DNA of 16,084 nucleotides from Myxococcales bacterium (GTDB lineage: Bacteria > Myxococcota_A > Polyangia > Polyangiales > Polyangiaceae): NCBI GenBank assembly GCA_016720545.1, contig JADKKK010000003.1, forward strand, positions 601,516 through 617,599. Direction: 5' to 3'. The translations under genes and the position numbers were made by a program. A model generated the notes under the pieces. The model had not been told where the DNA came from and did no database searches. It saw only the letters and a list, made by a program, of their open reading frames with translations. This document shows positions 1,529-16,084 of this stretch, one piece after another (positions within the stretch are counted from its first letter, which is position 1; every line of letters starts with the position of its first letter).

Positions 1529-4500
1529 TCAAGGATCGGGCAGGCTCGACTCGAGCGGCATCACGTAGGTCGACGTGAGCTGACGCATCACCTCGATGTT
1601 CGTCACGTAGCGCTTCAGCGTCGCGTCGGCCCCGGGGTTCTCGGGGTCGAGCTGCGGCTTGCCGCCCGCGAGCAGCAGCTTGGGGGTCCCGTCGGCGTTC
1701 ATGCGCACCGACCCGTTAGCCTCGCGCTCCACGAGATACGCGATCGTGACGAGGCGGTTCGCCCACTCCAACATGCGGGCGCCGATGCTCTTCTGATGGT
1801 CGAGCTCGAAATCCCGCTCGGTGCCGGTGGTGTGGGCGCGGTAGGTGAGCCCCGTGGCCGGGTTGATGAAGGTGTAGGTCTCGCCGACGGGCCAGGTCAC
1901 GGTCTCGCCCGCGCGGGACACGATCCGGGAGTCGTCGAGGAAGGCCTGCGACCAGCTCGTGGGGAAGAGCATCGTGCCCCACACCATCGCGTAGAGCTGC
2001 TGGCTCCAGCCGAACGCGGGGTCTACGACCCTGGCCGAGGCCGGGCGCGTCCCCAAGGAGCCGAGGTTCCGCCACGGCGGGTAGACCAGAGCGTTCGAGC
2101 CGTCGACCCACGGCGCCATGGACTCCACGTCTCCCGTGAGCACCGCCCCCATGAGGCGCTGCACCTGCGTGGGGTACAGCGTCGCGAAGTTCACGTTCTT
2201 GTAGCGGCCATCGACGAAGTCTTCTTTGGAGTTCGAGATGAAGGTATCGAACGCCTCCGACAGGTAATAGAGCGCCCAGGTCTTGTCGTAGAAGGACCCC
2301 ACTTGGGTCTGGTAGTCGGACCACCAATAACCCTGCCCGTAGTCAAAGTCGTTGTGGATGTAGCGCCCCTGTCCGAGGGGCAGCGCGAACGGGTATTTCG
2401 TGTCCTTCGTGGGCGCCGAGTCCGCCATGAAGATGTCCTTCCGGACACCGTAGGGCGCGATCGCGTAGCAGTCATCCGCGCCCGTCGAGCAGTACGAGCC
2501 CGGCTCCGGTCGCATGAGCGAGCGCGTGAAGAGATCGAACGCCAGGGTCGACGCGAGCGAGAGCGGTCCGTAGTTTCCGTCGGCGAGGAGGCTCTTGTCG
2601 GGGGCCGTCGGGTCGGGGGTCTCGAGCACCATCGCGAAGCCGAAGGTCTTCGCGATGTTCTGGATGGCGTCCAGGTAGTGCGACTGCGTGCGCGCCACCA
2701 CGTCCCACGAGTTGAACGTGACGCGGTTTCGACGGAAGGCGTCGAGGATGTACCGGTTCTCGTAGCCCTGCTCGAGGAAGCGCACCTGCTCGTAGGCGTC
2801 GGCGCCGGAGTCGTAGGAGAACGACGGGACGTTGCCCGAGTCGGAGTACTCGTCGGACGAGAACATGTACCCGCGCCGCACCCGCCCGGTCGGATCGGTC
2901 ACTCGCTCGACCCGCGTGAAGTCGGGGTAGTCGGGGTCGGTCACGAAGTCGCTCATGTCGCGATAGTCGACGACGTCGAGCGGCGCGCCCGTACACGTGG
3001 CCCCGAGCGGCGCGGTCGGGCTGGGCGTGCACTCACCGAGGAGGCCGAACTCCTTCGCGTACTCGCTGTAGTGGATATAGCGATAGTTGGCGTTGTTCGG
3101 CTCCGGGAAGGAGATCACGCCGAAGAGACCGGGTGAGGTCGCGAAGGCGGTCCGGCGGTAGGCGTCGCGCTTCGCGAGCGGCGAGCTCGAGGTGACGGTG
3201 ACCGAGGGCGCGTTCCACACGTCGACCGTGCCGCCGTACCCGAAGCGCACCGCCGCGCGGTCGTACTTGCCAATGATGAAGAAGTCTTGGACGTGGTCAC
3301 CGGGGTAGTCCATCACGCTGCTGCTGGCCGACGCGTTGATGAGCCCGTCGGTCTCGCGCTGCGTGAGCGGGTCCTTCCAGCGGGGGCCGATGCACTCCTC
3401 GCCGTCGGTGTTCCCATCTGCGCAGGTCTTCTTCACGGTGCCGTTGTTCGTGCGGAGCTGCCAGTACTCGCTGCCGTAGTTGAGCGAGTCGAAGGTGCCC
3501 GCGAAGTTGTGCCGCAAGCCCACCGCGTGCCCGAACTCGTGGGAGAACACGCTGTCCGAGAACTTCTGGCGCGCCCAGGCGAACACCTTGTCGCGCTTCG
3601 TGCGGGCGGCCTCGGGATCCGCGGGGTCGATGGTCCCGAACAGCCGCTGGGCCTCGCGGGCGAGGCCGACCAGGTTGTCCGCCTCGGGCCCCTCGCGCCG
3701 ACACGAGTGCCTGTGGGCGCGACCCACGCGCTTGCGCGCCTCGTAGGCCCGCCGGAAGGCCGGCGTGCCCAGCGCGCGGAGCGGTGAGGCCTTGGCCGCG
3801 AGCTCCTTCGTGACCGGGAGCCGCGGGTCTTGCCCAGCGAGCTGCGCCATCTCGGGGGTCACGATCTGCGCCTCCAGCGAGGAGCCGCGCAGCTTCGCGA
3901 GCCTGTCGGCGATCACCGCGTCGCCGGCGCCCATCCGCCCCGACTGGCTGAGCTCTCGCATGCGGTTCTTGCGGCGCAGCGTGGGCGGCAGCAGACGCGA
4001 CGCTCCTGGCTTCCCCGTGACGAACGGCGCCATGACCTTCGGGTCGAACGCCTCGTGGCGCGACGCGACCTCGGCCGCGCTCATCCCGCCCGGGAGGGGC
4101 GCGCCCCGGGTGTTCTGCTTCACCCAGTCGGCCACGTTCTGCCCCTTCACGAAGGCGGTCGGCGCGATCTCGCCGTTCAGCAGGCCGACGAGATCCGTCA
4201 GCGTGGCGGAGGCGCGGTCGAGCACGGACCGCCACTGGTTCACGCTGCCAGCGATCTTCTCGCCGGTGAGCGGGTCTTCGGCGTCGACCATGATGCCCCA
4301 CGGCGACTGGCGCTGTGGGCTGTCGACCAAGGAGAAGAGGTTGAAGCGCAGGTCGCCCACTCGAGGGCTGATGGGCTCGGTGCCGCACGCCGGATCGTCC
4401 TTCGATGGGTCGACCGGGTTGTGGCACAGCACGAACACGCGCGGCACCTGACGCTCGCCCTCGCCCAAGGGTGGCGTGAAGTCGTCCGACCAGGTGGCCG

Positions 4501-5830
4501 GCCACCCGAGGCGCTCCTCGCAGCCCGCCTCCTTCGTGCGACGACACTCGACGAGGCGCGCGGCCAACACGCCGGCGCGCACGGTGTCGCTCCAGGTCTC
4601 GACGACCTTCTTGGAGCCCTCGAAGAGGTCCTCGGGGAAGCCGCGGTTCGTGTGCCACACGGTGGTCTTCACCTTGCGATCTCGGAGCGGGATCGTGCAC
4701 GCGTGCCGAAACTCGTCGCAGCGCGAGCCGCGCCCGACCTTCTCGCACTCGTCCTCGGTGCCGTTGCCGTCGACGTCGCGGTGGACGTCGGCGCCGGCCG
4801 GCGTGGTGGCGGTCGTGCCGCAGGCGACGGCGTCGTCGTGCGAGCGCTGCCAGATGTTCCACCGCGAGGCGAAGCGCTTCCAGCGGTCGTCGACGATGCC
4901 GTAGCGGCGGTCGTAGCCGAAGCGGTCGTTCGTGAAATACCCGAACATGTCCATCTTCTTGCCGTCGTAGTCGGCGGGCTCGTAGTCGGTGTCGACGACC
5001 TTCTTGAACGCGAGCCGCAGCTTCACCTCGCTGGGGTTGCAGCTCGTCTGCGGGAGCTCGCCCACGAGCCAGCATGCCGGAAAGTCGCCCCACTCCTCGT
5101 CGTGGATGACTTGGGGCGCGGCGAAGGCCTTCGCGGTCACGTCGAAATAGCCGTCTTTCAGGCGCAGCTCGGGAGCGTCTGGGCTCTTCGGATCGTCGAC
5201 CCAATACGAGATGGGGTCCCACTTCACCGCGCCGTAGAGGCCGATTTGCGAGGGGCCGTCGAGGTCGTACGCGTCGGTGACGAGGTTCTTCGACCAGTCG
5301 ACGCGCATGTACTGGCGCTCGTACCAGCGCTGGTCGACGTCGTCCTCCACGACGACGTTGTTCTCCTCGCCGGTGGAGGTGTTGTAGCTGCGGGCGATGT
5401 TGAAGTGCTTGAGGATGGCGAAGCTCGCCACGATCTGGCCGTCGTTCGTGCGACGCGGCGGTCCCACGCGGGGCTCGTCGTTTCGGGCGGGGCCGACTGT
5501 GCCCTTGCCGTCCGTAGCGTCGACGAGCTCGTAGGCGAGCCGCGCCACGAGGAGGTTCTGGGTGACCTCCCAGCGGATGCGCACGGTGGGCTGCGCGTCG
5601 GAGGCGGTGAAGAGCGACTCGGAGCCCGCCCCGGGGGCGACGTCCACGACCGTCGTGCGGAAGTAGAACTCGGGATCGTCGTCGACGCTCGCGAGGTCTT
5701 TGCCCACGAAGAACTCCTTCGGGAGCACCCCGCTCTGCACCTGATCGATGGGCGGCCTCTCCCCCGCACACCCTGAGCCAGCCAGCGCGCAGCTCAGCGC
5801 GAGCCCGAACACGATCGCAGCCTTCGACAT
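1529..5830 (-). CDS. Large secreted, possibly lipoprotein, metzincin-type zinc metalloprotease (1433 aa from the preferred start). It resembles the DUF5117/DUF4953-type 'zinc-dependent metalloprotease' proteins.
   Basis: The ORF is 1529..5926. The preferred start is the internal ATG at 5828-5830, which is preceded by GGGAGGG (5837-5843 on the minus strand) about 7 nt upstream. It yields an N-terminus 'MSKAAIVFGLALSCALAGSGC' with an n-region, a hydrophobic core and an AxA/lipobox-like site. The zinc-binding metzincin motif HEFGHAVGLRH (H-E-x-x-H-x-x-G-x-x-H) lies at ORF residues 796-806 (nt 3509-3541). There are several Cys-flanked Asp-rich loops (for example 'DVDGNGTEDECE'). The stop is TGA at 1529-1531. 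Confidence 0.8.
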   Translation of the reverse strand: MSKAAIVFGLALSCALAGSGCAGERPPIDQVQSGVLPKEFFVGKDLASVDDDPEFYFRTTVVDVAPGAGSESLFTASDAQPTVRIRWEVTQNLLVARLAYELVDATDGKGTVGPARNDEPRVGPPRRTNDGQIVASFAILKHFNIARSYNTSTGEENNVVVEDDVDQRWYERQYMRVDWSKNLVTDAYDLDGPSQIGLYGAVKWDPISYWVDDPKSPDAPELRLKDGYFDVTAKAFAAPQVIHDEEWGDFPACWLVGELPQTSCNPSEVKLRLAFKKVVDTDYEPADYDGKKMDMFGYFTNDRFGYDRRYGIVDDRWKRFASRWNIWQRSHDDAVACGTTATTPAGADVHRDVDGNGTEDECEKVGRGSRCDEFRHACTIPLRDRKVKTTVWHTNRGFPEDLFEGSKKVVETWSDTVRAGVLAARLVECRRTKEAGCEERLGWPATWSDDFTPPLGEGERQVPRVFVLCHNPVDPSKDDPACGTEPISPRVGDLRFNLFSLVDSPQRQSPWGIMVDAEDPLTGEKIAGSVNQWRSVLDRASATLTDLVGLLNGEIAPTAFVKGQNVADWVKQNTRGAPLPGGMSAAEVASRHEAFDPKVMAPFVTGKPGASRLLPPTLRRKNRMRELSQSGRMGAGDAVIADRLAKLRGSSLEAQIVTPEMAQLAGQDPRLPVTKELAAKASPLRALGTPAFRRAYEARKRVGRAHRHSCRREGPEADNLVGLAREAQRLFGTIDPADPEAARTKRDKVFAWARQKFSDSVFSHEFGHAVGLRHNFAGTFDSLNYGSEYWQLRTNNGTVKKTCADGNTDGEECIGPRWKDPLTQRETDGLINASASSSVMDYPGDHVQDFFIIGKYDRAAVRFGYGGTVDVWNAPSVTVTSSSPLAKRDAYRRTAFATSPGLFGVISFPEPNNANYRYIHYSEYAKEFGLLGECTPSPTAPLGATCTGAPLDVVDYRDMSDFVTDPDYPDFTRVERVTDPTGRVRRGYMFSSDEYSDSGNVPSFSYDSGADAYEQVRFLEQGYENRYILDAFRRNRVTFNSWDVVARTQSHYLDAIQNIAKTFGFAMVLETPDPTAPDKSLLADGNYGPLSLASTLAFDLFTRSLMRPEPGSYCSTGADDCYAIAPYGVRKDIFMADSAPTKDTKYPFALPLGQGRYIHNDFDYGQGYWWSDYQTQVGSFYDKTWALYYLSEAFDTFISNSKEDFVDGRYKNVNFATLYPTQVQRLMGAVLTGDVESMAPWVDGSNALVYPPWRNLGSLGTRPASARVVDPAFGWSQQLYAMVWGTMLFPTSWSQAFLDDSRIVSRAGETVTWPVGETYTFINPATGLTYRAHTTGTERDFELDHQKSIGARMLEWANRLVTIAYLVEREANGSVRMNADGTPKLLLAGGKPQLDPENPGADATLKRYVTNIEVMRQLTSTYVMPLESSLPDP
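3509..3541 (-). other. HEXXHXXGXXH zinc-binding active-site motif of the metalloprotease
   Basis: The translation is HEFGHAVGLRH. Coordinates were computed from the ORF end (5926) and the residue index. Confidence 0.8.
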
Positions 5831-5836
5831 GACGCG

Positions 5837-5843
5837 CCCTCCC
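5837..5843 (-). promoter_or_regulatory. Shine-Dalgarno (GGGAGGG) for the metalloprotease start at 5830
   Basis: The minus-strand mRNA reads CTGGGAGGGCGCGTC-ATG. Confidence 0.55.
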
Positions 5844-5930
5844 AGTCTCGTGGGCGCACGCGGCGACAGCGCCGGATCGTGCGCAAGCCAAGCGGCGGTT
5901 CTACCATCTGCCAACGCCGCGCGCACCGGC

Positions 5931-6003: not shown

Positions 6004-8049
6004 CTACTTGGCGCAGCGAAACCCGACGTCGGGCTGACGGTTGTCGGGGGCGGCCTTCGCGCGCGCCGTCGCGCGGAGGGACGCCGGCGTGACGCTGCTC
6101 CACGAGCCACCTCGCACGACCCGGGCCACGGTCCCGCAGGCGGTCTCGCCGTACGGACAGAAGGGCGCGTCGACCCACTCGGCGACGTTGCCGGCCATGT
6201 CGAACGCGCCGAACGGGCTCACCCCGGCGGGGAACGCGCCGACGGGGGAGGTGCCCTCCCAGCGATCGTCCCCATCGACCAGAGCGGCCACCGTGTCGAC
6301 GCTCCGCCGCGAGGGGATCCCGCAACCCTTGTCGCAAGCGTTCACGCGGAGCGGAGTGGGGGCGTCGTGGCCCCACGGGAACGGCCGCGCCTCGGGGCCT
6401 CGGGCGACGATCTCCCACTGGGCCTCGGTCGGGAGCGCCTTGTTCGCCCAGCGGCAATACGCCGCCGCGTCGTCGAACGAGACGCAGTTCATCGGGTGCT
6501 CCGCGGTGCCGTCGCGTCCCTCGTTGCAGAAGCGGCTCCACGCCACGCGCTCCTCTTTGGTAGCGGTGGGCCACGCGGCGTCCTTGTGGCCGGCGCGGCA
6601 GCCCCCGCGCTTCACGCACTCGGCGTACTCCGCGACGGTGACCTCGGTCATATCCATGCAGAACGCATTTACCTGCTCGGTGTGCGCCGGCTGCTCTTCG
6701 CGCGGGCCTCCATCCGCGCCGACGAACCCGACGGTGGCCGCGACGCGCACCATGCCCTTGGGGCAGTACGGCAGCGCGCCCGGCGTGACCGCGGCGTCCT
6801 CCGGCTCGCCGGCGGGGCCGCGGGGGCGGAGGAGCACCGCGACCCCGCCGAGGGCGGCGAGCACGAGGGCGCCGGCGGCCAAGACCCGAGGCGAGGGCCC
6901 GCTGACCGGGAGCGGCGCGGGCTCGGCCGCGGGCTCGTCGGAGTCGGCGACAGCGTCGCTCGGGGTCACGGCGAGCGACGCACGGAGTGGCGCAGCGGGC
7001 GCCCCCGTGGCCACGGTGGCGGCGTCGCCGAGGCGCGCGTTCGCGGTGGCCGAGAGGGGTGTGACGATCCCGTTCGGATCGGTCCGCGGGCGGCTGTCGG
7101 GCAGCGAGGGGCGCCGGGGCGGGACGGAGGTGGCGGGCGGCGCGAACCCGCACAGGGCGCAGAGCGCCGCGTAGGCCTCGGTGGCGTCGCCGTAGCGATC
7201 GCGCGGCTCGCGCGCCACGGCGCGGGCGAACCAGGTATCGAACGAGCCCGGGAGCGTCGTGGGGGCCCCGAGCTCGCGGGCTCGCTGGCTGGCCGGGGGG
7301 ATGGGCTCGAGCACGAGCTCGCGAAAGAAGCCCCGCACGCGGCCACCCTCGCCTGCGCCCCCGTCGCCGCGCGCCGCGAGCCAGAACTCGTGGCCGGTGA
7401 GCATGTGGAACGCGAGGAGCCCCAGGGCCCACACGTCGGTCGCGGGGCTGATGTCGGCGCTCCGCTCGGTCTGCTCCGGGGCCATCCAGAGGGGAGAGCC
7501 GATGGCGCCGGTGTTCGCGCGCGCCTCCTCCAGGAGCTTGGCGATGCCAAAGTCAAGAACCTTGACCGTATACGCCTCCTGCGCGCGCTTCGAGTGCGCG
7601 AGGAACACGTTCGCGGGCTTCAGGTCGCGGTGCACGATCCCGGCGGCGTGCGCCGCGCCGAGCGCGTGGCACACCTGGCCGAGGATGGCGGCCGACTCGG
7701 CCAACGTGAACGGGCCGTGGCTTCGCACGGTGGCGGAGAGATCGTCGCCGACGAGCAGCTCCATCGCGAGCCACGGGGTTCCCGTGGCGGCGTCGACGCC
7801 CGCGCCCACCACCTCCACGACGTGCTCGCTCGCGATGCGCGCGCCGACCCTCGCCTCGAGCGCGAACTTCTCCCGAAGCTCGGGGCTCGAAGCCATTCCA
7901 AAGTGCATGAGCTTGAGCGCGCGCGGGCGACCCGTGGAGAGCTGCTCGGCCAGATAGACCGCCCCCATCCCGCCGGACGCGAGCCTCCGGACGACGCGGA
8001 ACTCGGCGGCGAAGAGCGTCCCCTCGGCCAGGTCCGCGTGGCTAAACAC
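6004..8049 (-). CDS. Ser/Thr protein kinase (Hanks-type) with a single TM segment and a C-terminal FGE-sulfatase-like (SUMF1/PF03781-like) extracytoplasmic domain
   Basis: The ORF is 681 aa and starts at GTG. The kinase has a Gly loop 'LASGGMGAVYLA', an invariant Lys in 'ALKLMH', a catalytic loop 'HRDLKPANVFL', and 'DFG' and 'WMAPE' motifs. A hydrophobic helix 'VLAAGALVLAALGGVAVLL' spans roughly nt 6829-6888. The C-terminal domain contains the FGE-family landmarks 'CMDMTEVTVAEY', 'CVSFDDAAAYCRW', 'LPTEAQWE', 'GNVAEWV' and 'RGGSW'. It lacks the conserved Cys pair of catalytic FGEs, ending 'RGGSWSSVTPASLR'. Confidence 0.85.
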   Translation of the reverse strand: MFSHADLAEGTLFAAEFRVVRRLASGGMGAVYLAEQLSTGRPRALKLMHFGMASSPELREKFALEARVGARIASEHVVEVVGAGVDAATGTPWLAMELLVGDDLSATVRSHGPFTLAESAAILGQVCHALGAAHAAGIVHRDLKPANVFLAHSKRAQEAYTVKVLDFGIAKLLEEARANTGAIGSPLWMAPEQTERSADISPATDVWALGLLAFHMLTGHEFWLAARGDGGAGEGGRVRGFFRELVLEPIPPASQRARELGAPTTLPGSFDTWFARAVAREPRDRYGDATEAYAALCALCGFAPPATSVPPRRPSLPDSRPRTDPNGIVTPLSATANARLGDAATVATGAPAAPLRASLAVTPSDAVADSDEPAAEPAPLPVSGPSPRVLAAGALVLAALGGVAVLLRPRGPAGEPEDAAVTPGALPYCPKGMVRVAATVGFVGADGGPREEQPAHTEQVNAFCMDMTEVTVAEYAECVKRGGCRAGHKDAAWPTATKEERVAWSRFCNEGRDGTAEHPMNCVSFDDAAAYCRWANKALPTEAQWEIVARGPEARPFPWGHDAPTPLRVNACDKGCGIPSRRSVDTVAALVDGDDRWEGTSPVGAFPAGVSPFGAFDMAGNVAEWVDAPFCPYGETACGTVARVVRGGSWSSVTPASLRATARAKAAPDNRQPDVGFRCAK
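6007..6777 (-). other. FGE-sulfatase-like (SUMF1-type) domain of the kinase, probably non-catalytic
   Basis: See the kinase CDS. The active-site Cys...Cys motif after RGGS(F/W) is absent. Confidence 0.65.
7180..8007 (-). other. Protein kinase catalytic domain (approximately residues 15-290 of the STK)
   Basis: This is the span covering the kinase motifs listed for the 6004..8049 CDS. Coordinates were derived from the ORF end and residue indices. Confidence 0.75.
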
Positions 8050-8058
8050 GAGGTCATG

Positions 8059-8793
8059 TTACCCTGAAGCTGGCCGCCCCCGCGCGGAACCGCGCGAGTC
8101 GCGGACCAGCGAGGTGAGCACGACGTCGTCGAGGGGCTCGAAGCGCCCGGCGAGCGTGAGCCCAGCGGGCAGGTGCTCGAGCGCGACGGTGAGCGCGATC
8201 TCGAACGCGCCGCGCTCGGCGTCGATCGACACGACGCGCGCGTCCTGAAAGCCAAAGTAGCGACGGACCTCGGGATAGAGGCACTTGTAGAGGGTCTCCT
8301 TCGCGGAGAACACCAGGGTGAGGGCGCGCCCGCTCGACCAGCCGGTCCGCTCGCAGAGCTCGGGGAGCTCGCCGTCGGTGGTGATGTGGGCGCCGATGCG
8401 GCGCGGGGCGTCGTCGTTCATCCACCGCTCGACGTCGACGCCGACCGCGCCCACGAGCCCGCTGCCGCTCGCCGCCGCCACGACCACGCCCGTGGTGTGC
8501 GCGATGCTCCCCGCGGCGCCGGCGGGCCAGAGCGGCTCGCGGTTCGGGCCCTGGCCTAGGGGCTCCTCCGCGAGGGCGTGCGCGCAGTCGCGGAGGGCGG
8601 CCCGCGCGCAGTAGCGCCCCGCGAGATACTCGAGCCGCCGCTTCGGCACCGCCCCCGCGAGCGACGCGGGGAGCGGAATGCCGTCGAGCTCGGCCACGGT
8701 GGCGATCACCGCGTCGGTCGCGAGGTCCACGCGCACGGCGCGCGCTGCCACGTCGGCGGGGAACAGGTGGGCCGGCAGCTCGAGCGCGCGCAC
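8059..8793 (-). CDS. 4'-phosphopantetheinyl transferase (Sfp/EntD/PfaE-type)
   Basis: A raw 369-aa ORF (8059..9168) overlaps the PKS 3' end in another frame. Only the C-terminal ~244 aa look like a PPTase: 'PKRRLEYLAGRYCARAAL', 'WPAGAAGSIAHTTG', 'GVDVE' (nt 8428-8442) and 'FSAKETLYK' (nt 8284-8310). These match the three conserved PPTase blocks. The proposed GTG start at 8791-8793 lies 2 nt after the PKS TGA (8796-8798), but no clear SD is present. The stop is TAA at 8059-8061, and the kinase GTG begins 9 nt later. Confidence 0.72.
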   Translation of the reverse strand: MRALELPAHLFPADVAARAVRVDLATDAVIATVAELDGIPLPASLAGAVPKRRLEYLAGRYCARAALRDCAHALAEEPLGQGPNREPLWPAGAAGSIAHTTGVVVAAASGSGLVGAVGVDVERWMNDDAPRRIGAHITTDGELPELCERTGWSSGRALTLVFSAKETLYKCLYPEVRRYFGFQDARVVSIDAERGAFEIALTVALEHLPAGLTLAGRFEPLDDVVLTSLVRDSRGSARGRPASG

Positions 8794-8795
8794 GC

Positions 8796-11700
8796 TCAGG
8801 CCGCGGGTGTGGTCGGGTCGGTCGCGACGAGCCGCACGGCGAGGCCCTTGGCCTCGTAGATGCGCTTGCCGTCGACCCAGAGCGACCCCTCCGCCACCAC
8901 GACGCGCGCGGGGACTCCGTCGCACACTTCGTCGCGGACCTCGGTGAGCTCCACGTCGACGACCACGACGTGGTTCGACGGGATGACCTGGCCGCGGTAC
9001 TTCCACGACATGGTCACGCCCGCGGCCTGCGTCTCGAAGCGCGGCGCCGCGAGCCCGCGGCCGAGGTCGAGCTCGATGACGAGCGCTTGGAGCGCCTGGA
9101 GGAGCGCCTCGATGCCGAGCGAGCCCGGCTGTACCGGGTCTTGGTAGAAGTGGGCCTTGAAGAACCACTGGCGCGCGGCGACGTCCTTCTCCGCCCGCAG
9201 ACGGCCGAGGCCCGCCTTGCCCGCGAGCTCGCCCTCGCGCCAGAGACCCGTGAGCCGGTCGATCATGACCAGGCGCTCCTCGGGGAGCCGCAGCGAGCCG
9301 CCGAAGTAGCGCGCAGGACAGTCGCCGAGCTCGACGCGATGGTCGCTCGCGTCGACCAGGCGGGCCCGGTGCGCCGGCGTCATGGGGAGGCCGGCTTGGT
9401 CCTTCATGGTGTCGCCGGGGAAGAACCCGAAGACCGTCTTTAGCGTGTAGATTACACGCTCACCTGCGGTCATCACGACGTCGAAGCCCATGATGACGAT
9501 CGCGTCGGCCTTGGAGATCGACGTGAGCTTCGTGGTCACGGTGAGCGTGCCCACGTCGGGGGTGATCTCCACGTGCTGCGTGCCGGTCCCGTCGAGGTTC
9601 CGGAAGTAGAGGTTGTCCTCCGAGTCGAGGGCGCCGCCGGTGTACGAGGCGAGCCACCCGCAGGGCTGGAGCGCGGTCTCGAGCATGACGGGGAACGGCA
9701 TGGCCCGCGCGTTGTTCTGCGTGAAGTACCACTCGTCCGCGGGCACGTCGTAGTCGATCACCGCGACGCTCCCGACCTCCATGCCGCCGATGCGCCCGGT
9801 GACGCTCGTGACGCGCGACATGAAGTGGTACGGCGGCCCGGGCAGCCGCGCGACGCGGCGGGTGCCGTCGAAGCGCGCGTACATCGGCCCGAACGCCGAC
9901 GACGGGACGCCCCACGCGCACGCGAGCAGCGACGCGTAGTCGAAGCGGAAGCCGTCGACCACGGCGACCGGGCGCGGGTCGCGCGCGGCCTCGCGCAGCG
10001 CCGGCACGTCGAGGCGACCCGCATCGAGCGGCCACGCCGGCACGAGGCGGAGCGCCATGCGCTTGCAGTGGAACGCCTTGCGTCCGTCGACGGTGCCGAG
10101 GATGTCGGCGTAGAGCGTGGGCGTGAGGCCTCCCACGACCTCCTCGACGAAGATCTCGTAGACGACCTCCTTCGACGTGGGCACCGCCTGTCCCCGGCAG
10201 CGCAGGCTGTAGTTCTCCTCGGGGACCGGCTCGAAGCGCGAGCCGTCGTGATCGAGGGTGTGGCCCAGCGCGGTCATCAAGATCTGCATGGCCTGAAGGC
10301 CGCCCTCGAGCATGAGCGTGCCGGGCATGCAGGGGTCATTCTTGAAGTGGCCGTCGAAGAACCAGTGCTCGGGGGTGAGCGACAGCACCGCGCGGAGGTA
10401 GCCGCGGCCCCACGGGCCACCGTTCGGCTCGAAGGCCGTGACCTCGTCCAGCAGACGCATCTTGCCGCCAGCGATGGTGGGCGTGCGCGTGTGCGAGTCG
10501 GCGTGATCGAGCTCGGGCCCGAAGCACTCCCCGAGGCGGCCCTCGACGAACGCGGTGATCTGGTCGCGGCTGAAGGCCCTTCGCGACGACAGCGCGCGCG
10601 GCGGATCGAGCCGAGGGTTCGCGACCGGCGTCGCGGCCTCGGGCGACCAGAGCACGCCCGCCGAGCCGGCGAGCTCTTCGTCGGTGAAGAACCCCGCCTG
10701 ACCGCTCCGCACGCTCATGCGAAGCTCGCCGTTCACCCAGCAGTTGTAGTGGAAGAAGAAGAGCCGGATGCCGTTCTGCTCGGCGTGCCCGTCGACGAGG
10801 ATCTCGTAGTGGAGCGTATCGCCGAGCGTGGGCAGCGGGCCGTGGCTCTTCAGCTCGCAGCCGAGCAGGCGATACACCCGCTCGCCGCGGTTCAGGAAGT
10901 CGGCCCCGAGCCACGAGATGAGCATGAGGTCGGCCTGGCCCGACTCGACCAGCAGGCCCGCGGGCATGCGACCCTCGTGGAGGTACCACGCGCCCGGCGT
11001 GACGTCGGTCTCGGTCCAGATGGTGCCGAGGCCGAGCGTGCCCGGTGTGCCCTCGATCCCGAGCACGCGATCGGCGAGCAGCAGCGGCGGCTCGGGCATG
11101 CGCACCTGGCGCGCGTAGCCGTCCTGCTGGCGGAACAAGTCCCCGAATATTTTCGATATTTCGCCGCTGGCGTGGATCTCGAGGCCCGCACGATCGAAGG
11201 TCGGCCCGGTGGGCGTGCGAGGCCTTGGCGTGGCCGCGCGCGGAGCCACCTTCGCCTCGGGGGCCTTGGCGGGCGCCGCGAGGGCCTGGGTGGGCGGGGC
11301 CTTGGCGAGCGGGCTCTCGCTCTTCGCGGGGGACGGCGCGGGCGCCGCCGACCTCGCGAGCACGGGCGCGGCGCGCGGCGCCTCGACGGCCGCCGGTGTC
11401 GGTGCCGGGACGGGCGCGACAGGCGTAGGCCGCGCGCCTGGCGCCGGAGCGACCAGCGCTTCGTGCCGCGCGTCGTCGGCGTGGGGCGAGGCGTCCGCGC
11501 CGCCGCGCGCCCAGCGGCCAAGCGGGGCGAGCGTGACGTCGACGAAGCGCGCTTGCAGCTCGATCTGCTGACGCATGAAGGCCGTGTGGAGCTCGGCCAG
11601 CCGCGCGTGGTGCGCGGTGAGCGCGCCGAGCGGCGGCGGCGAGGCGTGAGGCGACGGGTGCGGCGGCGCGAGGTGCGGCGCTTGCGCCACCGCGGACCGC

Positions 11701-14700
11701 GCGACCGGGCTCGCGGGCCGCGGCGCGGGAGCGGTCGGTCGGGGCGCCGGGGTCGAAGGCGGGGCAGGTCGCGTCGCCGTCCCTACGGAAGCGAGCATCG
11801 GCGGCGGCGCCATGTATTCGCCCTCGTCGTGAGAGGGCGCGAGCGGCGCGGGCTGGTGGGCGTGCCCGTTCGCGGGAGTCGAGGGAGTAGAGACCGCGGC
11901 CATCATGGGGAGCTCTTGCGTCATTCGTGGGGGCGTGCGCGGCACGGCGTCGGGGTGGGCGGGGAGCGAGAGGAGCAGCGTCGGGGCCGAGCGGGCCGGC
12001 GGCGCCTCACGACCTCGCGCGAGGCGCGCGAGGATCGACTCGAGCGCCACGGGCGCGCCCGCGGCGAACAAACGGGCCGCGGCCTCGGCCGCCTGGAGGA
12101 GCGAGGAGCGCCCGTAGCGATCGAGCGCGATCGCGACGTGCGGCCTCTCGCCCAGCACCTCGTCGATCCATTTGGTGCATCCTGCATGGGGTCCGTGCTC
12201 GATGAACACCCGAACGCCGTCGGCCCAGGCGCGCTCCACGAGCGCCGGAAAGTCGACGAGGTTCATCGCCTGGCCCGTGAGCGCGTCGGCGGCGGTCTCG
12301 GTCGTGGCCACGTAGCTGGAGAGGCTCGCGTGCGTGTAGAAGCGCATCCACGGCATCGAGATGGTGGGGCGCGTGTGGAGCGCGCGCCACCTTGACTCGA
12401 ACTCGCGCGCCTCCGGGCAGTGCATCACGAAGTCGTAGCCGGGGGTCCGCACCGCGCGGCGGCCTAGCTTGGCGCCGACGCGCGCGCAGGCCTCCGGCTC
12501 GCCCGAGAACACCATGTCGGTGGGCGAGTTGATGATCACGAGGTGGGCGCGGGTCTCGCCCTCGAGGGCGGCGCGAACGTCGCCGATCGGGGCGCGCACC
12601 CGCCAGGTGGCCCACTCGGGCGTGGCGTCGGCGTCGAGGTTCCAGGCGGGGCGCAGGCAGGCGAGCTCGCCGCAGAGCCAGCGGTCGTAGACGCGCGTCT
12701 CGGCGACGTCGGACCGGAAGCCGTCCAGATCGGTCCACGCGCCCAGGGCGAAGAGCGAGTTGGTCTCGCCGGAGCAGTAGCCGATGGCCGCGGTAGGCTC
12801 GAGACCGAAGGTGCCGCGCGTGAGCTCCGTGTGGAGCTGACCGAGGTACGAGGCGCCCCAGAGCTTCTCGAGGGGCGTCGTCTGCCGATCCGGGACGTCG
12901 TCGTACACCCAGCCCGCCGCGTCGCGCACCGAGGCGGCGCGGGCCCCGAAGCTGTCGACCAGCTCCGGGAACGCGAGGGCGAGATCGCGGCCCATGTGCG
13001 GGTAGGCGCCCGCCGCGCCGGTGAACACGAACGCGAGCTCGCCCTCGAGCGGACCGCGGCCGAAATGCACGCCCTCGTCGAGCGCGGCGGTCGCGTCCGA
13101 CGCGAGGGCCGCGGGCGGGAGCGCGCGGAGCAGGGCCGCCGCGCGCGCGAGGCGCTCGGCGTACTCGCGAGGATCCTCGGCGACGACGGCGAGGCGCAGC
13201 GCAGACGCGGGCAGCGCAGACGCCTCGGCCGCGGAGAGCGTGCGCCCGCTCTCGACGGAGGCGATCAGCGCCGCGACGTCCACGGCGCCGAAGAGCCCCA
13301 GCTCCGGCGCGGGCGTCAAAAAGATCGGATCTGTCGGAGGGGTAGGGGGCGCCTCGACGTAGGTGGTGCTGTCGCCCGCGATCGACGCGACCCGCACACG
13401 CGCGCGGCGCGTGCCCGCGGTGGGGAGCCACGGCATGGGGCCTACGGCCGACGGGAGCGCGCGCCGCGCGCACGCCTCGATCGCGGCGGCGACGTGCAGC
13501 AGCCCCGAGGCGGCGTGCGCGTGCCCGAAGCGCGGCGTGAGCCCCTCGGAGTCGGGCGTGAGCGCCAGATCCAGCGTGGGCTCGGCCCCGTCGAAGAGAT
13601 CGTCGGTGAGCAGCGCGAGCACCGGATCGCCGTCGCGCACGGCGTCCGCGTGGCGCTTGCACACGAGCAGCACGGCGGCGTCGCCCGGCTCGCGGTGGCT
13701 CGCTGGCAGCACCTCGCGGGCGGCGCGCTCAGCCACCGGCTCGCACGCGAGGTCGACCGCGCCCACGACCGCGGCGTCGATCTCGCCAGCGCGGAGCGCC
13801 CGCGCGCCGATGGCGAGCGCGGTGAGCCCGGAGCGCTCCTCGGACGAGACGGTGTAGCTCGGCCCGCGCACGTCGAGCTGGTGGCTCAATCGATTCGCGA
13901 CGATGTTGGGCATGCAGCCGATGACGGAGGCCCCGGTGAGGCCGTCCCGCGCGAGCGCGGTCGGGAGCGCGTCGACCCAACGTCGCTCGCCGCGCCAGCG
14001 CACGGCGTGCCGCGCGACCTCCGCGTCGGTCTGCATGCCAATGAGGACGGAGGTACGCTCCTTCGGCAGCCGCGCGAGGGCGTCGGCCATGGCCGGGCTC
14101 TTGGCCATCGCGAGCAGCCAGGTCTGTTGTGGGAGCGACGCGCGCAGGTCGTTGGGGGGAAAGCGCAGCCCGCCCGCGTCGAGCTCGATGGTCGCGGCCC
14201 TCGCCGTGGCGCCGCTCGACGCGGCGGTGGTGAGGAGCCCCTCGCGAAGCTCTTCGGTCGCCGAGCCCGCGCGCACGGCGCGCGCGACGACCGCGATCTC
14301 GACGTCAGAGCGCGCGCCCGCGCCGCCCGAGGTCGCGCCGGGCAGCCACTCCTCGAGGAGGAGGTGGGCGTTGTTGCCGCCGAAGCCGAAGTTGCTGATG
14401 GCGGCCCGTCGCGGCGTGCCTGCGGGCGACCCCCAGGGCTCCTCCTCGCGGAGCAGGCGGAACGCGCCATCGGCGAGCTCGTCGAGCGGGGCGTCCGCGT
14501 GGCGCGTGGGCGGGCGAACCTGCTCGCGCATCGCGGCGAGCACCTTGATGACGGCCGCCGCCCCCGAAGCCGTGATGAGGTGCCCGACGTTCGACTTGAG
14601 CGAGCCGATCGGCACTCCTCGCGCGCCCTCGAACACCGCGCGCATGCTGCGGATCTCCGCGCCGTCGCCCACGCCGGTCCCGGTGGCGTGACACTCGACG

Positions 14701-15626
14701 AGCGAGATGTCGCTGGGCGAGAGGCCGCTCTCCGCGTACGCGGCGCGGAGGGCGCGGATCTGGCCTTCCTCGGAGGGGACCATGAGGCCGCGGCTCCGGC
14801 CGTCGTTCGAGAGGCCCACGCCCCGAATGACGCCGAGGATGCGGCGCCCGTTGGCGACCGCGTCGTCGAGGCGCTCGAGGAGGAGAAGGGCGGCCCCCTG
14901 CGCGGGCACGAGGCCGTCGGCCTCACGATGAAAAGGTCTGCTCTGTCCTGTAGGGCTCAGCGCGCGCAGCGCCGAGAAGCCGCCGTGAAGGAACAGATCG
15001 TCTGCGTGGTTCACGCCCCCGGCGAGCGCGAGATCGGCGCGCCCGTCATGGAGCGCGAGGCACGCGAGCTTCAGCGCGTAGAGCGACGACGCACACGCGG
15101 CGTCCAGGGCGAAGGCTTCGCCCCCGAAGCCCACCGCCGCGGCGGCGAGCTCCGCGGGCAGCCCCGACATGAAGCGGTTTCGCGGATCGGCGCCGCGCCC
15201 CTCGCCCGACCAGACCTCGAGCGCGAGATCGACCAGGCCCGGGGTGGGGTAGCTCAGGTTTCCGAGCACGAGCGCGCCGCGAGGCCGGGGCTCGAGGGGA
15301 GAGAGGCCCGCGCTCCGGAGCGCCTCGCGCGCGGCGTGGATCGTCCACGAGAACACGGGGTCGAGCCCTCGCAGGCTCGCCGCGTCGACCGCGAAGCCCT
15401 CGGGGTCGAACACCGCGTCGAAGCCGGTCACGTGGCCTCCGACGTCGCTCGAGATCTCGCGCGCCAGCTGCTGACGGCTCGCGCCCGCGTCGAGGCCCCA
15501 GAGGCCAGCCGCGGCAGGCCCTATCGCCGAGCGGCCCTCACGCACGAGGGCCCAGAGGGCCTCGGGCGTGAGCGCAGAGGGGAGGACGCAGCCTTGGCCG
15601 ACGATCGCGATCGGGGGAAACTTCAA
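8796..15626 (-). CDS. PUFA/secondary-lipid synthase subunit, PfaC/Pfa3-like (2276 aa), with domain order KS - CLF - AT - Pro/Ala linker - (pseudoDH+FabA-DH) x2 and no C-terminal AGPAT domain
   Basis: The active KS carries Cys178 in 'DAACASSLYAL', plus 'ECHATGTGVGD' and 'NVGHLITASGAA'. In the second KS-like region the Cys position reads 'TVSSEERSGLTAL' (Cys replaced by Glu), which is the CLF-type partner seen in PfaC. The AT has 'LEPTAAIGYCSGETNSLFALGAW', aligning to FabD 'GHSLGEYSAL'. Two FabA-type active sites are 'HFKNDPCMPGTLMLEGGLQAMQIL' and 'HFYQDPVQPGSLGIEALLQALQAL', each preceded by a hot-dog pseudo-DH repeat. The TTG start at 15624-15626 has GGAG 6 nt upstream. The stop is TGA at 8796-8798. 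Confidence 0.85.
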   Translation of the reverse strand: MKFPPIAIVGQGCVLPSALTPEALWALVREGRSAIGPAAAGLWGLDAGASRQQLAREISSDVGGHVTGFDAVFDPEGFAVDAASLRGLDPVFSWTIHAAREALRSAGLSPLEPRPRGALVLGNLSYPTPGLVDLALEVWSGEGRGADPRNRFMSGLPAELAAAAVGFGGEAFALDAACASSLYALKLACLALHDGRADLALAGGVNHADDLFLHGGFSALRALSPTGQSRPFHREADGLVPAQGAALLLLERLDDAVANGRRILGVIRGVGLSNDGRSRGLMVPSEEGQIRALRAAYAESGLSPSDISLVECHATGTGVGDGAEIRSMRAVFEGARGVPIGSLKSNVGHLITASGAAAVIKVLAAMREQVRPPTRHADAPLDELADGAFRLLREEEPWGSPAGTPRRAAISNFGFGGNNAHLLLEEWLPGATSGGAGARSDVEIAVVARAVRAGSATEELREGLLTTAASSGATARAATIELDAGGLRFPPNDLRASLPQQTWLLAMAKSPAMADALARLPKERTSVLIGMQTDAEVARHAVRWRGERRWVDALPTALARDGLTGASVIGCMPNIVANRLSHQLDVRGPSYTVSSEERSGLTALAIGARALRAGEIDAAVVGAVDLACEPVAERAAREVLPASHREPGDAAVLLVCKRHADAVRDGDPVLALLTDDLFDGAEPTLDLALTPDSEGLTPRFGHAHAASGLLHVAAAIEACARRALPSAVGPMPWLPTAGTRRARVRVASIAGDSTTYVEAPPTPPTDPIFLTPAPELGLFGAVDVAALIASVESGRTLSAAEASALPASALRLAVVAEDPREYAERLARAAALLRALPPAALASDATAALDEGVHFGRGPLEGELAFVFTGAAGAYPHMGRDLALAFPELVDSFGARAASVRDAAGWVYDDVPDRQTTPLEKLWGASYLGQLHTELTRGTFGLEPTAAIGYCSGETNSLFALGAWTDLDGFRSDVAETRVYDRWLCGELACLRPAWNLDADATPEWATWRVRAPIGDVRAALEGETRAHLVIINSPTDMVFSGEPEACARVGAKLGRRAVRTPGYDFVMHCPEAREFESRWRALHTRPTISMPWMRFYTHASLSSYVATTETAADALTGQAMNLVDFPALVERAWADGVRVFIEHGPHAGCTKWIDEVLGERPHVAIALDRYGRSSLLQAAEAAARLFAAGAPVALESILARLARGREAPPARSAPTLLLSLPAHPDAVPRTPPRMTQELPMMAAVSTPSTPANGHAHQPAPLAPSHDEGEYMAPPPMLASVGTATRPAPPSTPAPRPTAPAPRPASPVARSAVAQAPHLAPPHPSPHASPPPLGALTAHHARLAELHTAFMRQQIELQARFVDVTLAPLGRWARGGADASPHADDARHEALVAPAPGARPTPVAPVPAPTPAAVEAPRAAPVLARSAAPAPSPAKSESPLAKAPPTQALAAPAKAPEAKVAPRAATPRPRTPTGPTFDRAGLEIHASGEISKIFGDLFRQQDGYARQVRMPEPPLLLADRVLGIEGTPGTLGLGTIWTETDVTPGAWYLHEGRMPAGLLVESGQADLMLISWLGADFLNRGERVYRLLGCELKSHGPLPTLGDTLHYEILVDGHAEQNGIRLFFFHYNCWVNGELRMSVRSGQAGFFTDEELAGSAGVLWSPEAATPVANPRLDPPRALSSRRAFSRDQITAFVEGRLGECFGPELDHADSHTRTPTIAGGKMRLLDEVTAFEPNGGPWGRGYLRAVLSLTPEHWFFDGHFKNDPCMPGTLMLEGGLQAMQILMTALGHTLDHDGSRFEPVPEENYSLRCRGQAVPTSKEVVYEIFVEEVVGGLTPTLYADILGTVDGRKAFHCKRMALRLVPAWPLDAGRLDVPALREAARDPRPVAVVDGFRFDYASLLACAWGVPSSAFGPMYARFDGTRRVARLPGPPYHFMSRVTSVTGRIGGMEVGSVAVIDYDVPADEWYFTQNNARAMPFPVMLETALQPCGWLASYTGGALDSEDNLYFRNLDGTGTQHVEITPDVGTLTVTTKLTSISKADAIVIMGFDVVMTAGERVIYTLKTVFGFFPGDTMKDQAGLPMTPAHRARLVDASDHRVELGDCPARYFGGSLRLPEERLVMIDRLTGLWREGELAGKAGLGRLRAEKDVAARQWFFKAHFYQDPVQPGSLGIEALLQALQALVIELDLGRGLAAPRFETQAAGVTMSWKYRGQVIPSNHVVVVDVELTEVRDEVCDGVPARVVVAEGSLWVDGKRIYEAKGLAVRLVATDPTTPAA
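8799..9989 (-). other. Second pseudo-DH + FabA-type dehydratase/isomerase pair
   Basis: This covers PKS residues ~1880-2276. The FabA-motif His is in 'HFYQDPVQPG', at about nt 9150-9152. Confidence 0.65.
10049..11195 (-). other. First pseudo-DH + FabA-type dehydratase/isomerase pair
   Basis: This covers PKS residues ~1478-1860. The active-site His1760 codon is at 10347-10349, in the FabA motif HFxxDPxxPG. Confidence 0.65.
11204..12014 (-). repeat. Roughly 270-aa low-complexity Pro/Ala-rich linker (PAPRPTAPAPRPASP..., APAKAPEAKVAP..., with GC-rich near-repeats at the DNA level)
   Basis: PKS residues ~1205-1475 are dominated by P/A/T/S/R. They create long spurious ORFs in other frames, for example 10892..11521- and 11209..11571+. 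Confidence 0.7.
12029..13049 (-). other. Acyltransferase (AT) domain carrying a non-canonical G-Y-C-S-G-E nucleophile motif
   Basis: This covers PKS residues ~860-1200. The Cys951 codon lies at 12774-12776. Confidence 0.65.
13409..14219 (-). other. Chain-length-factor-like inactive KS (CLF)
   Basis: This covers PKS residues ~470-740. The catalytic Cys position is occupied by Glu in 'SSEERSGL'. Confidence 0.65.
14352..15620 (-). other. Ketosynthase (KS) domain, predicted active (Cys178; His motifs present)
   Basis: This covers PKS residues ~3-425. The Cys178 codon lies at 15093-15095. Confidence 0.75.
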
Positions 15627-15632
15627 CGGGGG

Positions 15633-15636
15633 CTCC
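15633..15636 (-). promoter_or_regulatory. GGAG Shine-Dalgarno for the TTG start of the PfaC-like gene
   Basis: The minus-strand mRNA reads ...CCCCTGGAGCCCCCG-TTG-AAG-TTT. Confidence 0.45.
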
Positions 15637-15698
15637 AGGGGCGCGCGCGCCTCCAGGGCACGCGCGTGGACGTGGTCGAGGGGGGGCGAGGCGAGGAC

Positions 15699-16084
15699 CT
15701 ACGCGGTCGCGTTGGCCGTGGTGCCGCTCGGCACCGCGTACATCTCGACGTCGACGAGATCGGCGATGCGGGCGCCGTCGCTGCCGGCGAGCGTGATGTC
15801 ACACACCACCCGCTCGGGGGTCTGGCTGCGCACGAGCAGCGCGCACTGGATGGGGCCGGCGGCGGCGTGGCCCGCGTACCCGAGCTTGCCGATGCGGAGC
15901 GGCAGGGTCTGGCCGAGCGAGCCGAGGCCGCACAGGATGGCGAGCTGGAGGGCGCCGTCGACGGCCGCGGGGTCGGTCTCCCACGCCTCGGTCGGCCAGC
16001 CGACGTCGGAGGTGCCGGAGAGCGTGGCGCGAGCGCCGCGCGGGGAGAGCCCGTCGACCGAGCGGATCACCTGAAAGTCGTGAC
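15699..16084 (-). CDS. 3' end (C-terminal ~128 aa) of the upstream PfaA/Pfa2-like PKS subunit. It is partial and continues beyond the right edge of the window.
   Basis: The frame is open to the window edge. The translation '...DGALQLAILCGLGSLGQTLPLRIGKLGYAGHAAAGPIQCALLVRS...VVCDITLAGSDGARIADLVDVEMYAV' resembles the second half of a PKS-type hot-dog DH, which is the C-terminal domain of PfaA-type subunits. The stop is TAG at 15699-15701. Confidence 0.55.
   Translation of the reverse strand, partial: HDFQVIRSVDGLSPRGARATLSGTSDVGWPTEAWETDPAAVDGALQLAILCGLGSLGQTLPLRIGKLGYAGHAAAGPIQCALLVRSQTPERVVCDITLAGSDGARIADLVDVEMYAVPSGTTANATA

Follow-up and report, generated by a model that had tools for sequence, protein, structure and literature searches.

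What kind of synthase is encoded where a pfa3-like gene lacks the terminal acyltransferase of its myxobacterial counterparts and runs almost directly into a gene for a phosphopantetheinyl transferase (PPTase)? The question is raised by a stretch of 16,084 nucleotides (nt) from a Myxococcales bacterium of the Polyangiaceae (assembly GCA_016720545.1, contig JADKKK010000003.1, forward-strand positions 601,516 to 617,599), the whole of which is called the window below; the source is an uncultured soil-type bacterium. A preliminary description of positions 8059-16084, made from the sequence alone, had seen here a non-canonical locus and a distinct sub-type of secondary-lipid synthase. Our analysis indicates that the region is probably the 3′ part of a four-gene operon of Type L in the scheme of Shulse & Allen (2011). 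The predicted operon consists of pfa1 (enoyl reductase, ER), pfa2 (ketosynthase-acyltransferase-three acyl carrier proteins-ketoreductase-dehydratase, KS-AT-ACPx3-KR-DH), pfa3 (KS-chain-length factor-AT-two dehydratases, KS-CLF-AT-DH2) and the PPTase gene, working as proposed below. It belongs to an uncharacterised branch, or clade, of the known Type-L-like pfa family and is not a new kind of system. As judged from the genes compared here, the mark of this clade is a Pfa3 without a 1-acylglycerol-3-phosphate acyltransferase (AGPAT) domain, translationally coupled to a PPTase of the EntD type.

All credible genes of the flagged region are on the minus strand, in a window with a G+C content of 72%. 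They are, in the order of transcription:

15702..16084, minus strand: 3′ end of a pfa2/pfaA-like gene, cut by the window end (stop codon 15702-15704; open reading frame (ORF) 15705-16082).
8796..15626, minus strand: pfa3-like gene, 2276 amino acids (aa), with the order KS-CLF-AT-linker-(DH'/DH)x2; TTG start, 75 nt past the pfa2 stop.
8059..8793, minus strand: Sfp-type PPTase gene, 244 aa, of the EntD/PptT-like (F/KES) subfamily; GTG start; Pfam 4PPT_N and ACPS.

The TTG start of pfa3 (15626) has a GGAG 6 nt upstream, and the N-terminus of the protein, MKFPPIAIVGQG, agrees with the consensus of its homologues. At the other end of the gene the junction reads TGA, GC, GTG, so that the PPTase begins 2 nt past the pfa3 stop, as the preliminary description had stated; this suggests translational coupling. 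An exact-sequence look-up of the 2276-aa protein gave no match. An identical protein (P0001, NCBI) from a metagenome-assembled genome (MAG) labelled Polyangiaceae led to locus L156, whose record stops at the contig end. This independent public assembly (GCA_035433285.1) is 99.56% identical to the window over 15,254 nt, and its gene calls and Pfa3 end agree with ours. The locus is real, intact and conserved.

The architecture of the Pfa3-like protein was read from Pfam and NCBIfam matches, catalytic motifs and alignment with homologues:

14337..15614, minus strand: active ketosynthase, aa 5-430, with Cys178 (DAACAS), His313 (HATGT) and His349 (NVGH); Pfam ketoacyl-synt and Ketoacyl-synt_C.
13227..14279, minus strand: chain-length-factor domain (KS-like), about aa 450-800; second ketoacyl-synt stretch in Pfam.
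12156..13043, minus strand: PfaB-like acyltransferase, aa 862-1157; NCBIfam TIGR02816 pfaB_fam, 3.3e-17.
11217..11984, minus strand: Ala/Pro-rich low-complexity linker between AT and dehydratases, about aa 1215-1470 (256 aa; 24% Ala, 22% Pro), defined by composition.
10032..11192, minus strand: first pair of pseudo-DH and FabA-type dehydratase/isomerase, about aa 1479-1865; best Pfam FabA stretch aa 1721-1853.
8799..9929, minus strand: second pair of pseudo-DH and FabA-type dehydratase/isomerase, about aa 1900-2276, to the protein end; NCBIfam FabA models at aa 2110-2268.

The Pfam matches comprise two stretches of ketoacyl-synt (1.6e-64), Ketoacyl-synt_C (3e-35), four stretches of FabA (7e-86) and a weak Acyl_transf_1 match at aa 938-1156. 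The three KS residues are invariant in the homologue alignment (A1). A blastp comparison of KS with CLF gave no match at 1e-3; the Smith-Waterman local alignment used in its place sets SSEERSG against DAACASS, with Glu at the position of the catalytic Cys, and the second KS-like domain is therefore a chain-length factor. The AT domain carries Ser952 in GYCSG and a His1069 that is invariant among homologues, and the best match of this region in the Protein Data Bank (PDB) is the PfaB of Shewanella baltica (9ry8, 3.3e-16), with the serine motif aligned. Both FabA-type motifs are present, H1760-FKNDPCMPG in the first domain, in columns invariant among the homologues, and H2159-FYQDPVQPG in the second, directly after which the protein ends (...VRLVATDPTTPAA). 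KS, CLF, AT and two FabA-type DH are thus found in one protein, which is the fused pfaB-pfaC arrangement of Type L. The GC skew reaches +0.16 at window positions 11001-12000, compared with about 0.02-0.06 elsewhere; since the Ala/Pro-rich linker lies there, with GCN and CCN codons on the minus strand, the bump is compositional and marks no separate feature.

The large proteins of the window have no Pfam match to PF01553 (AGPAT/PlsC). A hidden Markov model (HMM) built from the tails of nine Pfa3 homologues finds 41 AGPAT ORFs in related loci; its best E-value on the six-frame ORFs of the window, with all filters off, is 0.66. By Pfam, by this AGPAT-tail HMM and by the position of its end, the window protein does not have the C-terminal AGPAT that marks Pfa3 of the Aetherobacter/Minicystis/Sorangium type. 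The domain order KS-CLF-AT-DH2 with an internal AT, the absence of AGPAT and the end past the second FabA-DH, all put forward in the preliminary description, are thus borne out, and a separate adjacent PlsC/AGPAT ORF, which it held would tell against its proposal, is encoded in no frame of the window. The HxxxxD motif that it proposed as a check occurs five times in Pfa3, each time inside a KS, CLF or DH domain, and is uninformative.

A protein search with the Pfa3-like query returns more than 7000 relatives, and the best 120 of these fall into three classes by their C-terminal tails. About 40 have no tail and end within 0-11 aa of the window Pfa3 end; in a second class, to which Aetherobacter Pfa3 belongs, AGPAT sits in a tail of about 300-400 aa; in a third, that of Minicystis, the tail is about 700-830 aa long and contains an extra segment besides AGPAT. 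Most AGPAT-bearing homologues (P0030-P0117, L032 from Minicystis rosea and L050 from Enhygromyxa salina) have the tail of 700-830 aa rather than one of about 330 aa, so that an extra segment of roughly 370 aa must lie between the second FabA-DH and AGPAT. This segment is not listed in the domain schemes quoted from papers; some of the proteins concerned show PS-DH matches in the precomputed Pfam list. In L068 (Streptomyces sp. NPDC006622, 16471-17704) the Pfa3-like ORF runs 411 aa beyond the second DH, with no match to the AGPAT profile.

The PPTase matches Pfam 4PPT_N (7.5e-21) and ACPS (5.6e-13), both above the gathering thresholds. Its alignment with orthologues shows the motifs KRRLEYLAGR, PLWPAGAAGSIAHT, GVDVERW and FSAKETLYK. 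With GSIAH and FSAKET it is of the EntD/PptT type (F/KES, P1b'), and it agrees with the motifs of that subfamily, WPxGxxGS(I/L)xH, GxDxE and FxxKE(S/T)xxK; it does not conform to the PfaE kind (P0, hRxhLS; P1b, (F/S)NxSH). The best PDB matches are EntD (7bcz, 2.3e-24) and PptT. The NCBIfam models PptT, EntD and Npt match at 88, 75 and 70 bits, against cut-offs of 365, 169 and 370, so that no equivalog is assigned. The PPTases beside other Type-L-like loci are PfaE-like, with FNxSH and W..KEA. As read from these motifs, an EntD/PptT-like rather than a PfaE-like PPTase is the only trait that really distinguishes the locus.

The linkage of this PPTase type to Pfa3 is conserved. In six genome loci the PPTase lies 6-47 nt past the end of Pfa3 homology, measured between HMM-hit boundaries. 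Among the metagenome contigs that carry a PPTase at least 47% identical together with upstream sequence (n = 11), the end of a PfaC-type DH2 lies 25-50 nt upstream of the PPTase in 10; the exception, L095, has a 47%-identical PPTase and no Pfa3 upstream. Metagenome PPTases of 43% identity or less are never linked. The clade member L001 and the sister-group locus L155 are without a PPTase. An apparent near-uniqueness of PPTase linkage to the window clade was rejected as an artefact of a narrow HMM drawn from that clade: iterated jackhmmer found PfaE-like PPTases at many loci.

Related loci supply the part of the operon that lies beyond the window. The Pfa2 fragment (Pfam PS-DH, 2.3e-8) is the last 126 aa of a pfaA homologue, the C-terminal part of a PKS-type (polyketide synthase-type) dehydratase; it shares 98% identity with the C-terminus of the Pfa2 fragment of L157 (KR and PS-DH) and 77% with that of the complete Pfa2 of L002 (KS-AT-ACPx3-KR-DH). 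The layouts are as follows:

L002, Pfa3 81% identical: ER (540 aa), Pfa2 (2235 aa, KS-AT-3xACP-KR-PS-DH), Pfa3 (2299 aa) and PPTase (242 aa), all on one strand.
L003, Pfa3 69% identical: gene order as in L002.
L154, Pfa3 65% identical: gene order as in L002, with a frameshift near the Pfa3 C-terminus.
L157, Pfa3 94% identical: Pfa2 C-terminus, Pfa3 and PPTase.

In L153 (6634-14326; Pfa3 62% identical) pfa3 and an EntD-like PPTase gene stand together, with DUF1877 and AraC-type genes upstream; either the synthase genes are split across this genome or the pair is a remnant. In L001 (3405-10008; Myxococcales MAG, Pfa3 61% identical) two proteins of 1098 aa each, KS-AT and ACP-KR-DH, take the place of a single Pfa2 homologue, and the ER gene is divergently oriented.

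How unusual the combination is was assessed in a genome scan with one genome per species, which gave 80 Pfa3-like loci, 69 of them evaluable, annotated with purpose-built profiles:

Loci with AGPAT (38): PfaE-like PPTase downstream in 10; EntD-like in 1, on the opposite strand; no PPTase in 27.
Loci without AGPAT (31): PfaE-like PPTase downstream in 5; EntD-like in 6, the window clade; no PPTase in 20.

A same-strand PPTase is found directly downstream in 21 of the 69 loci. Five loci outside the window clade (L017, L018, L034, L036 and L051) are both AGPAT-less and PPTase-linked, and Streptomyces tendae, other Streptomyces, Tahibacter aquaticus and a Mycolicibacterium have AGPAT-less proteins whose C-terminus lies 0-7 aa past the second DH. 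The absence of AGPAT, the PPTase linkage and even the two combined are therefore not unique to the locus.

In a neighbour-joining (NJ) tree the window protein falls in a clade with P0002-P0018, L001 and L002 (bootstrap 60/60), all members of which lack AGPAT; the PPTase-linked sub-clade (the window and P0002-P0016) is recovered equally well (60/60). Conservation of the traits across the clade means that they are no artefact. The window MAG and L030, which is 90% identical, bear the label Polyangiaceae; those that follow at 69-81% identity (L002, L003 and P0008) are labelled Gemmatimonadota, Gemmatimonadales and Gemmatimonas sp. These labels suggest either that the cassette passed horizontally from one phylum to another or that contigs were wrongly binned. 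A literature search on this clade in Gemmatimonadota returned nothing relevant.

The term non-canonical in the preliminary description was thus an overstatement, as 31 of the 69 evaluable loci, those of cultured Streptomyces, Tahibacter and Mycolicibacterium among them, are without AGPAT. The idea of a distinct sub-type holds in that the features are conserved in a well-supported clade, and fails in that neither trait is unique and Type L was already described as usually PPTase-linked. A described type with the same linkage, which that description had named as evidence against its own proposal, largely exists, because the PPTase of Type L is most often adjacent (Shulse & Allen). The EntD/PptT-like nature of the enzyme, on which the distinction depends, had been overlooked.

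The functional unit appears to end with the PPTase. The remaining genes of the window are:

6004-8049, minus strand: 681-aa Ser/Thr protein kinase fused to an FGE-sulfatase (formylglycine-generating-enzyme-like) domain, starting 9 nt past the PPTase stop.
1529-5926, minus strand: 1465-aa protein whose sole match is a short Met-zincin (DUF4953) at aa 792-810.
8-1519, plus strand: 503-aa ORF, annotated as a gene by NCBI in L156, a near-identical contig; no Pfam match above threshold, only a weak one to Methyltransf_25 (0.0029).

An all-against-all BLAST of the downstream ORFs, examined for a conserved partner (thioesterase, PlsC, ole, PKS or non-ribosomal peptide synthetase (NRPS)), found nothing in common beyond near-identical relatives; a downstream gene is shared with the closest relative, L157, only. 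The 1465-aa protein is encoded downstream of the PPTase in L157 with 90% aa identity and in no other related locus. In L157 (83-88% nt identity) the PPTase is followed straight by the next gene, without the kinase/FGE-sulfatase gene, which is therefore an insertion/deletion difference and not part of the pfa unit. With no conserved gene 3′ of the PPTase and the kinase gene missing from L157, the unit ends with the PPTase.

The following mechanism is proposed. The co-translated EntD/PptT-like PPTase would convert the tandem ACPs of Pfa2 to the holo form, as the conserved coupling of the PPTase gene to pfa3 suggests. The AT of Pfa2 would load malonyl units, which the KS of Pfa2 and the KS-CLF of Pfa3 would extend iteratively; the KR, the PKS-type DH and the two FabA-type dehydratase/isomerases would place cis double bonds, and the trans-acting ER would reduce selected enoyl intermediates. 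Loading, extension and double-bond formation are proposed because they are established chemistry of Pfa synthases and the catalytic motifs are intact. Since there is no AGPAT domain, the synthase would not itself esterify the chain onto 1-acyl-glycerol-3-phosphate. Most likely the internal PfaB-like AT (Ser952/His1069) would remove the chain from the ACP, either hydrolysing it to the free acid or passing it to a soluble carrier, for later use by enzymes encoded at other loci. Two reports suggest such a role for the AT: the AT-like domain of Thraustochytrium acts as a thioesterase (PMC8003026), and PfaB of bacteria is a terminal acyltransferase for long chains, which may hydrolyse them or hand them to a soluble ACP (PMC12895367). 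The product would be a long-chain unsaturated acyl chain whose identity is not predictable, and the caution of the preliminary description on this point stands.

Several points weigh against this reading. The pfa1 gene and most of pfa2 lie outside the window, and their presence is deduced from relatives; L153, which has no pfa1 or pfa2 upstream, shows that not every clade member has the four-gene layout. The NJ tree covers KS and DH2 only, and the reference set of Shulse & Allen is not part of it. That the AT off-loads the chain is an extrapolation from remotely similar proteins only (62 bits to PfaB), and the acyl-ACP could be the direct substrate of a PlsC-type acyltransferase encoded at another locus of the genome. 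Activity, substrate and type of product are predictions from sequence.

One alternative is that an ordinary myxobacterial KS-CLF-AT-DH2-AGPAT protein was recently truncated, has become a pseudogene or was misassembled. In its favour, characterised myxobacterial Pfa3 proteins do carry AGPAT (PMC8436480, PMC4882568), the MAG is labelled Polyangiaceae, and one relative, L154, is frameshifted near its C-terminus. Yet roughly 40 of the best 120 homologues, every member of the window clade among them, stop within 0-11 aa of the window Pfa3 end; the window and a second, independent assembly are 99.56% identical; no catalytic motif is damaged; only 2 nt separate the pfa3 stop from the PPTase start, and no AGPAT remnant is left in any frame. 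The AGPAT-bearing Pfa3 proteins of Aetherobacter and Minicystis, moreover, are about 45-57% identical and lie elsewhere in the tree. A truncation or artefact is thus highly improbable. The PPTase could alternatively be a general Sfp-type enzyme that serves all PKS/NRPS and other carrier proteins and is adjacent to pfa3 by chance. Myxobacteria and their relatives often rely on one broad-spectrum enzyme of this kind, the window enzyme falls in the broad EntD/PptT group, and the PPTase of L095 has no Pfa3 upstream. Chance adjacency, however, fits poorly with a linkage kept down to about 62% Pfa3 identity in MAGs labelled as two phyla, with its presence in 10 of the 11 informative metagenome contigs, with a 2-nt junction that suggests translational coupling, and with the association of pfa3 and PPTase in L153 even in the absence of pfa1 and pfa2; we consider an undedicated PPTase unlikely.

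A PPTase of PKS/NRPS type and a missing AGPAT might both be explained if the synthase fed a specialised, non-membrane pathway, such as a PKS/NRPS line, olefin (ole) synthesis or other tailoring. EntD/PptT-like PPTases form the PKS/NRPS group in the Shulse & Allen scheme, fused pfaBC synthases lacking AGPAT work for hybrid PKS-NRPS-lipid clusters of Streptomyces and other bacteria (PMC13291983), and Type L has been proposed to feed olefin synthesis in some hosts. Against this, Pfam finds no PKS, NRPS, ole or tailoring gene in the window, nor is there one within 10 kb in L002, L153, L154 and L157, and the flanking genes are not conserved across the clade; an EntD-like PPTase is also cited by Shulse & Allen as serving a genuine polyunsaturated fatty acid (PUFA) synthase in Photobacterium. 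A dedicated specialised pathway is therefore rather unlikely, and the operon of Type L, with its own PPTase, remains the preferred reading.

A bolder extension of that reading is conceivable but doubtful. The ER, Pfa2, AGPAT-less Pfa3 and EntD-like PPTase may form a self-contained, horizontally mobile cassette that replaced an ancestral PfaE-type activator and moved between Gemmatimonadota and Myxococcota, with the Pfa3-PPTase pair even separable, as in L153. Such a cassette might release a free or carrier-bound polyunsaturated acid for a role other than direct phospholipid acylation, for instance as a signalling lipid or as a precursor of hydrocarbons or specialised lipids.

The significance of the locus is modest, as it leaves the picture of how Pfa enzymes work unchanged. 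The literature treats the AGPAT domain as a hallmark of terrestrial (myxobacterial) PUFA synthases and as the route by which the product is loaded into lipids; in our survey nearly half of the sampled Pfa3-like genes lack it, and one clade, to which this Polyangiaceae MAG belongs, pairs the AGPAT-less synthase with a non-orthologous EntD-type PPTase. As a compact four-gene unit with its own activator, the operon could be expressed heterologously to probe AGPAT-less chain release and its products in soil and sediment bacteria.

Comparison with known systems places the locus as follows. The marine pfaEABCD loci (Shewanella, Moritella, Photobacterium) and the thraustochytrid synthases have the same set of catalytic domains, with an AT that is a PfaB homologue, and subunit B of thraustochytrids has the same KS-CLF-AT fusion (PMC4882568). 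The Photobacterium synthase likewise relies on an EntD-like PPTase, as cited in Shulse & Allen. The marine loci, unlike the window, encode PfaB on its own and have the ER gene at the end, and PfaE is normally of the W/KEA, FNxSH type; marine PfaC contains no AT, which in the window protein occupies aa 862-1157. Their products are EPA (eicosapentaenoic acid) and DHA (docosahexaenoic acid); that of the window cannot be named.

The AGPAT-less loci of Streptomyces tendae JCM 4610, other Streptomyces spp., Tahibacter aquaticus DSM 21667 and Mycolicibacterium sp. BiH015 share the KS-CLF-AT-DH2 order and, with the exception of L027, have an ER gene upstream wherever the flank is covered. Their proteins, however, are 43-45% identical to the window Pfa3 and have no PPTase within 1.5 kb downstream.

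The Pfa1-Pfa2-Pfa3 systems of Aetherobacter, Minicystis rosea and Sorangium (Gemperlein et al.; PMC8436480, PMC6731297) have the same gene order and an internal AT between CLF and the two FabA-type DH, and the window host is likewise labelled Polyangiaceae. The window Pfa3, about 45-57% identical to those of Aetherobacter and Minicystis, differs in lacking both the C-terminal AGPAT and the segment of about 370 aa that precedes it in Minicystis-type proteins, and belongs to a different, strongly supported clade. The PPTase of the window is within the operon, whereas that of Sorangium, Aetherobacter and Minicystis is at a separate locus (PMC8436480, PMC4882568), a departure that the preliminary description had correctly noted; the myxobacterial literature on AGPAT and an unlinked PPTase is based on these three genera only.

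The closest match is Type L, defined by a 5′ pfaD and a fused pfaBC and found in Sorangium cellulosum So ce56, Plesiocystis pacifica, Streptomyces coelicolor, Nakamurella and Saccharophagus (Shulse & Allen 2011). The window itself covers only the last third of such a cluster; its close relatives show the ER gene first, followed by the pfaA homologue and the fused pfaB-pfaC homologue, and the PPTase is adjacent, as in Type L, where it is 'most often in direct proximity'. The difference lies in the PPTase itself, which in Type L is reported to carry the PfaE motifs P0 and FNxSH and in the window has the EntD-type GSIAH and FSAKET.

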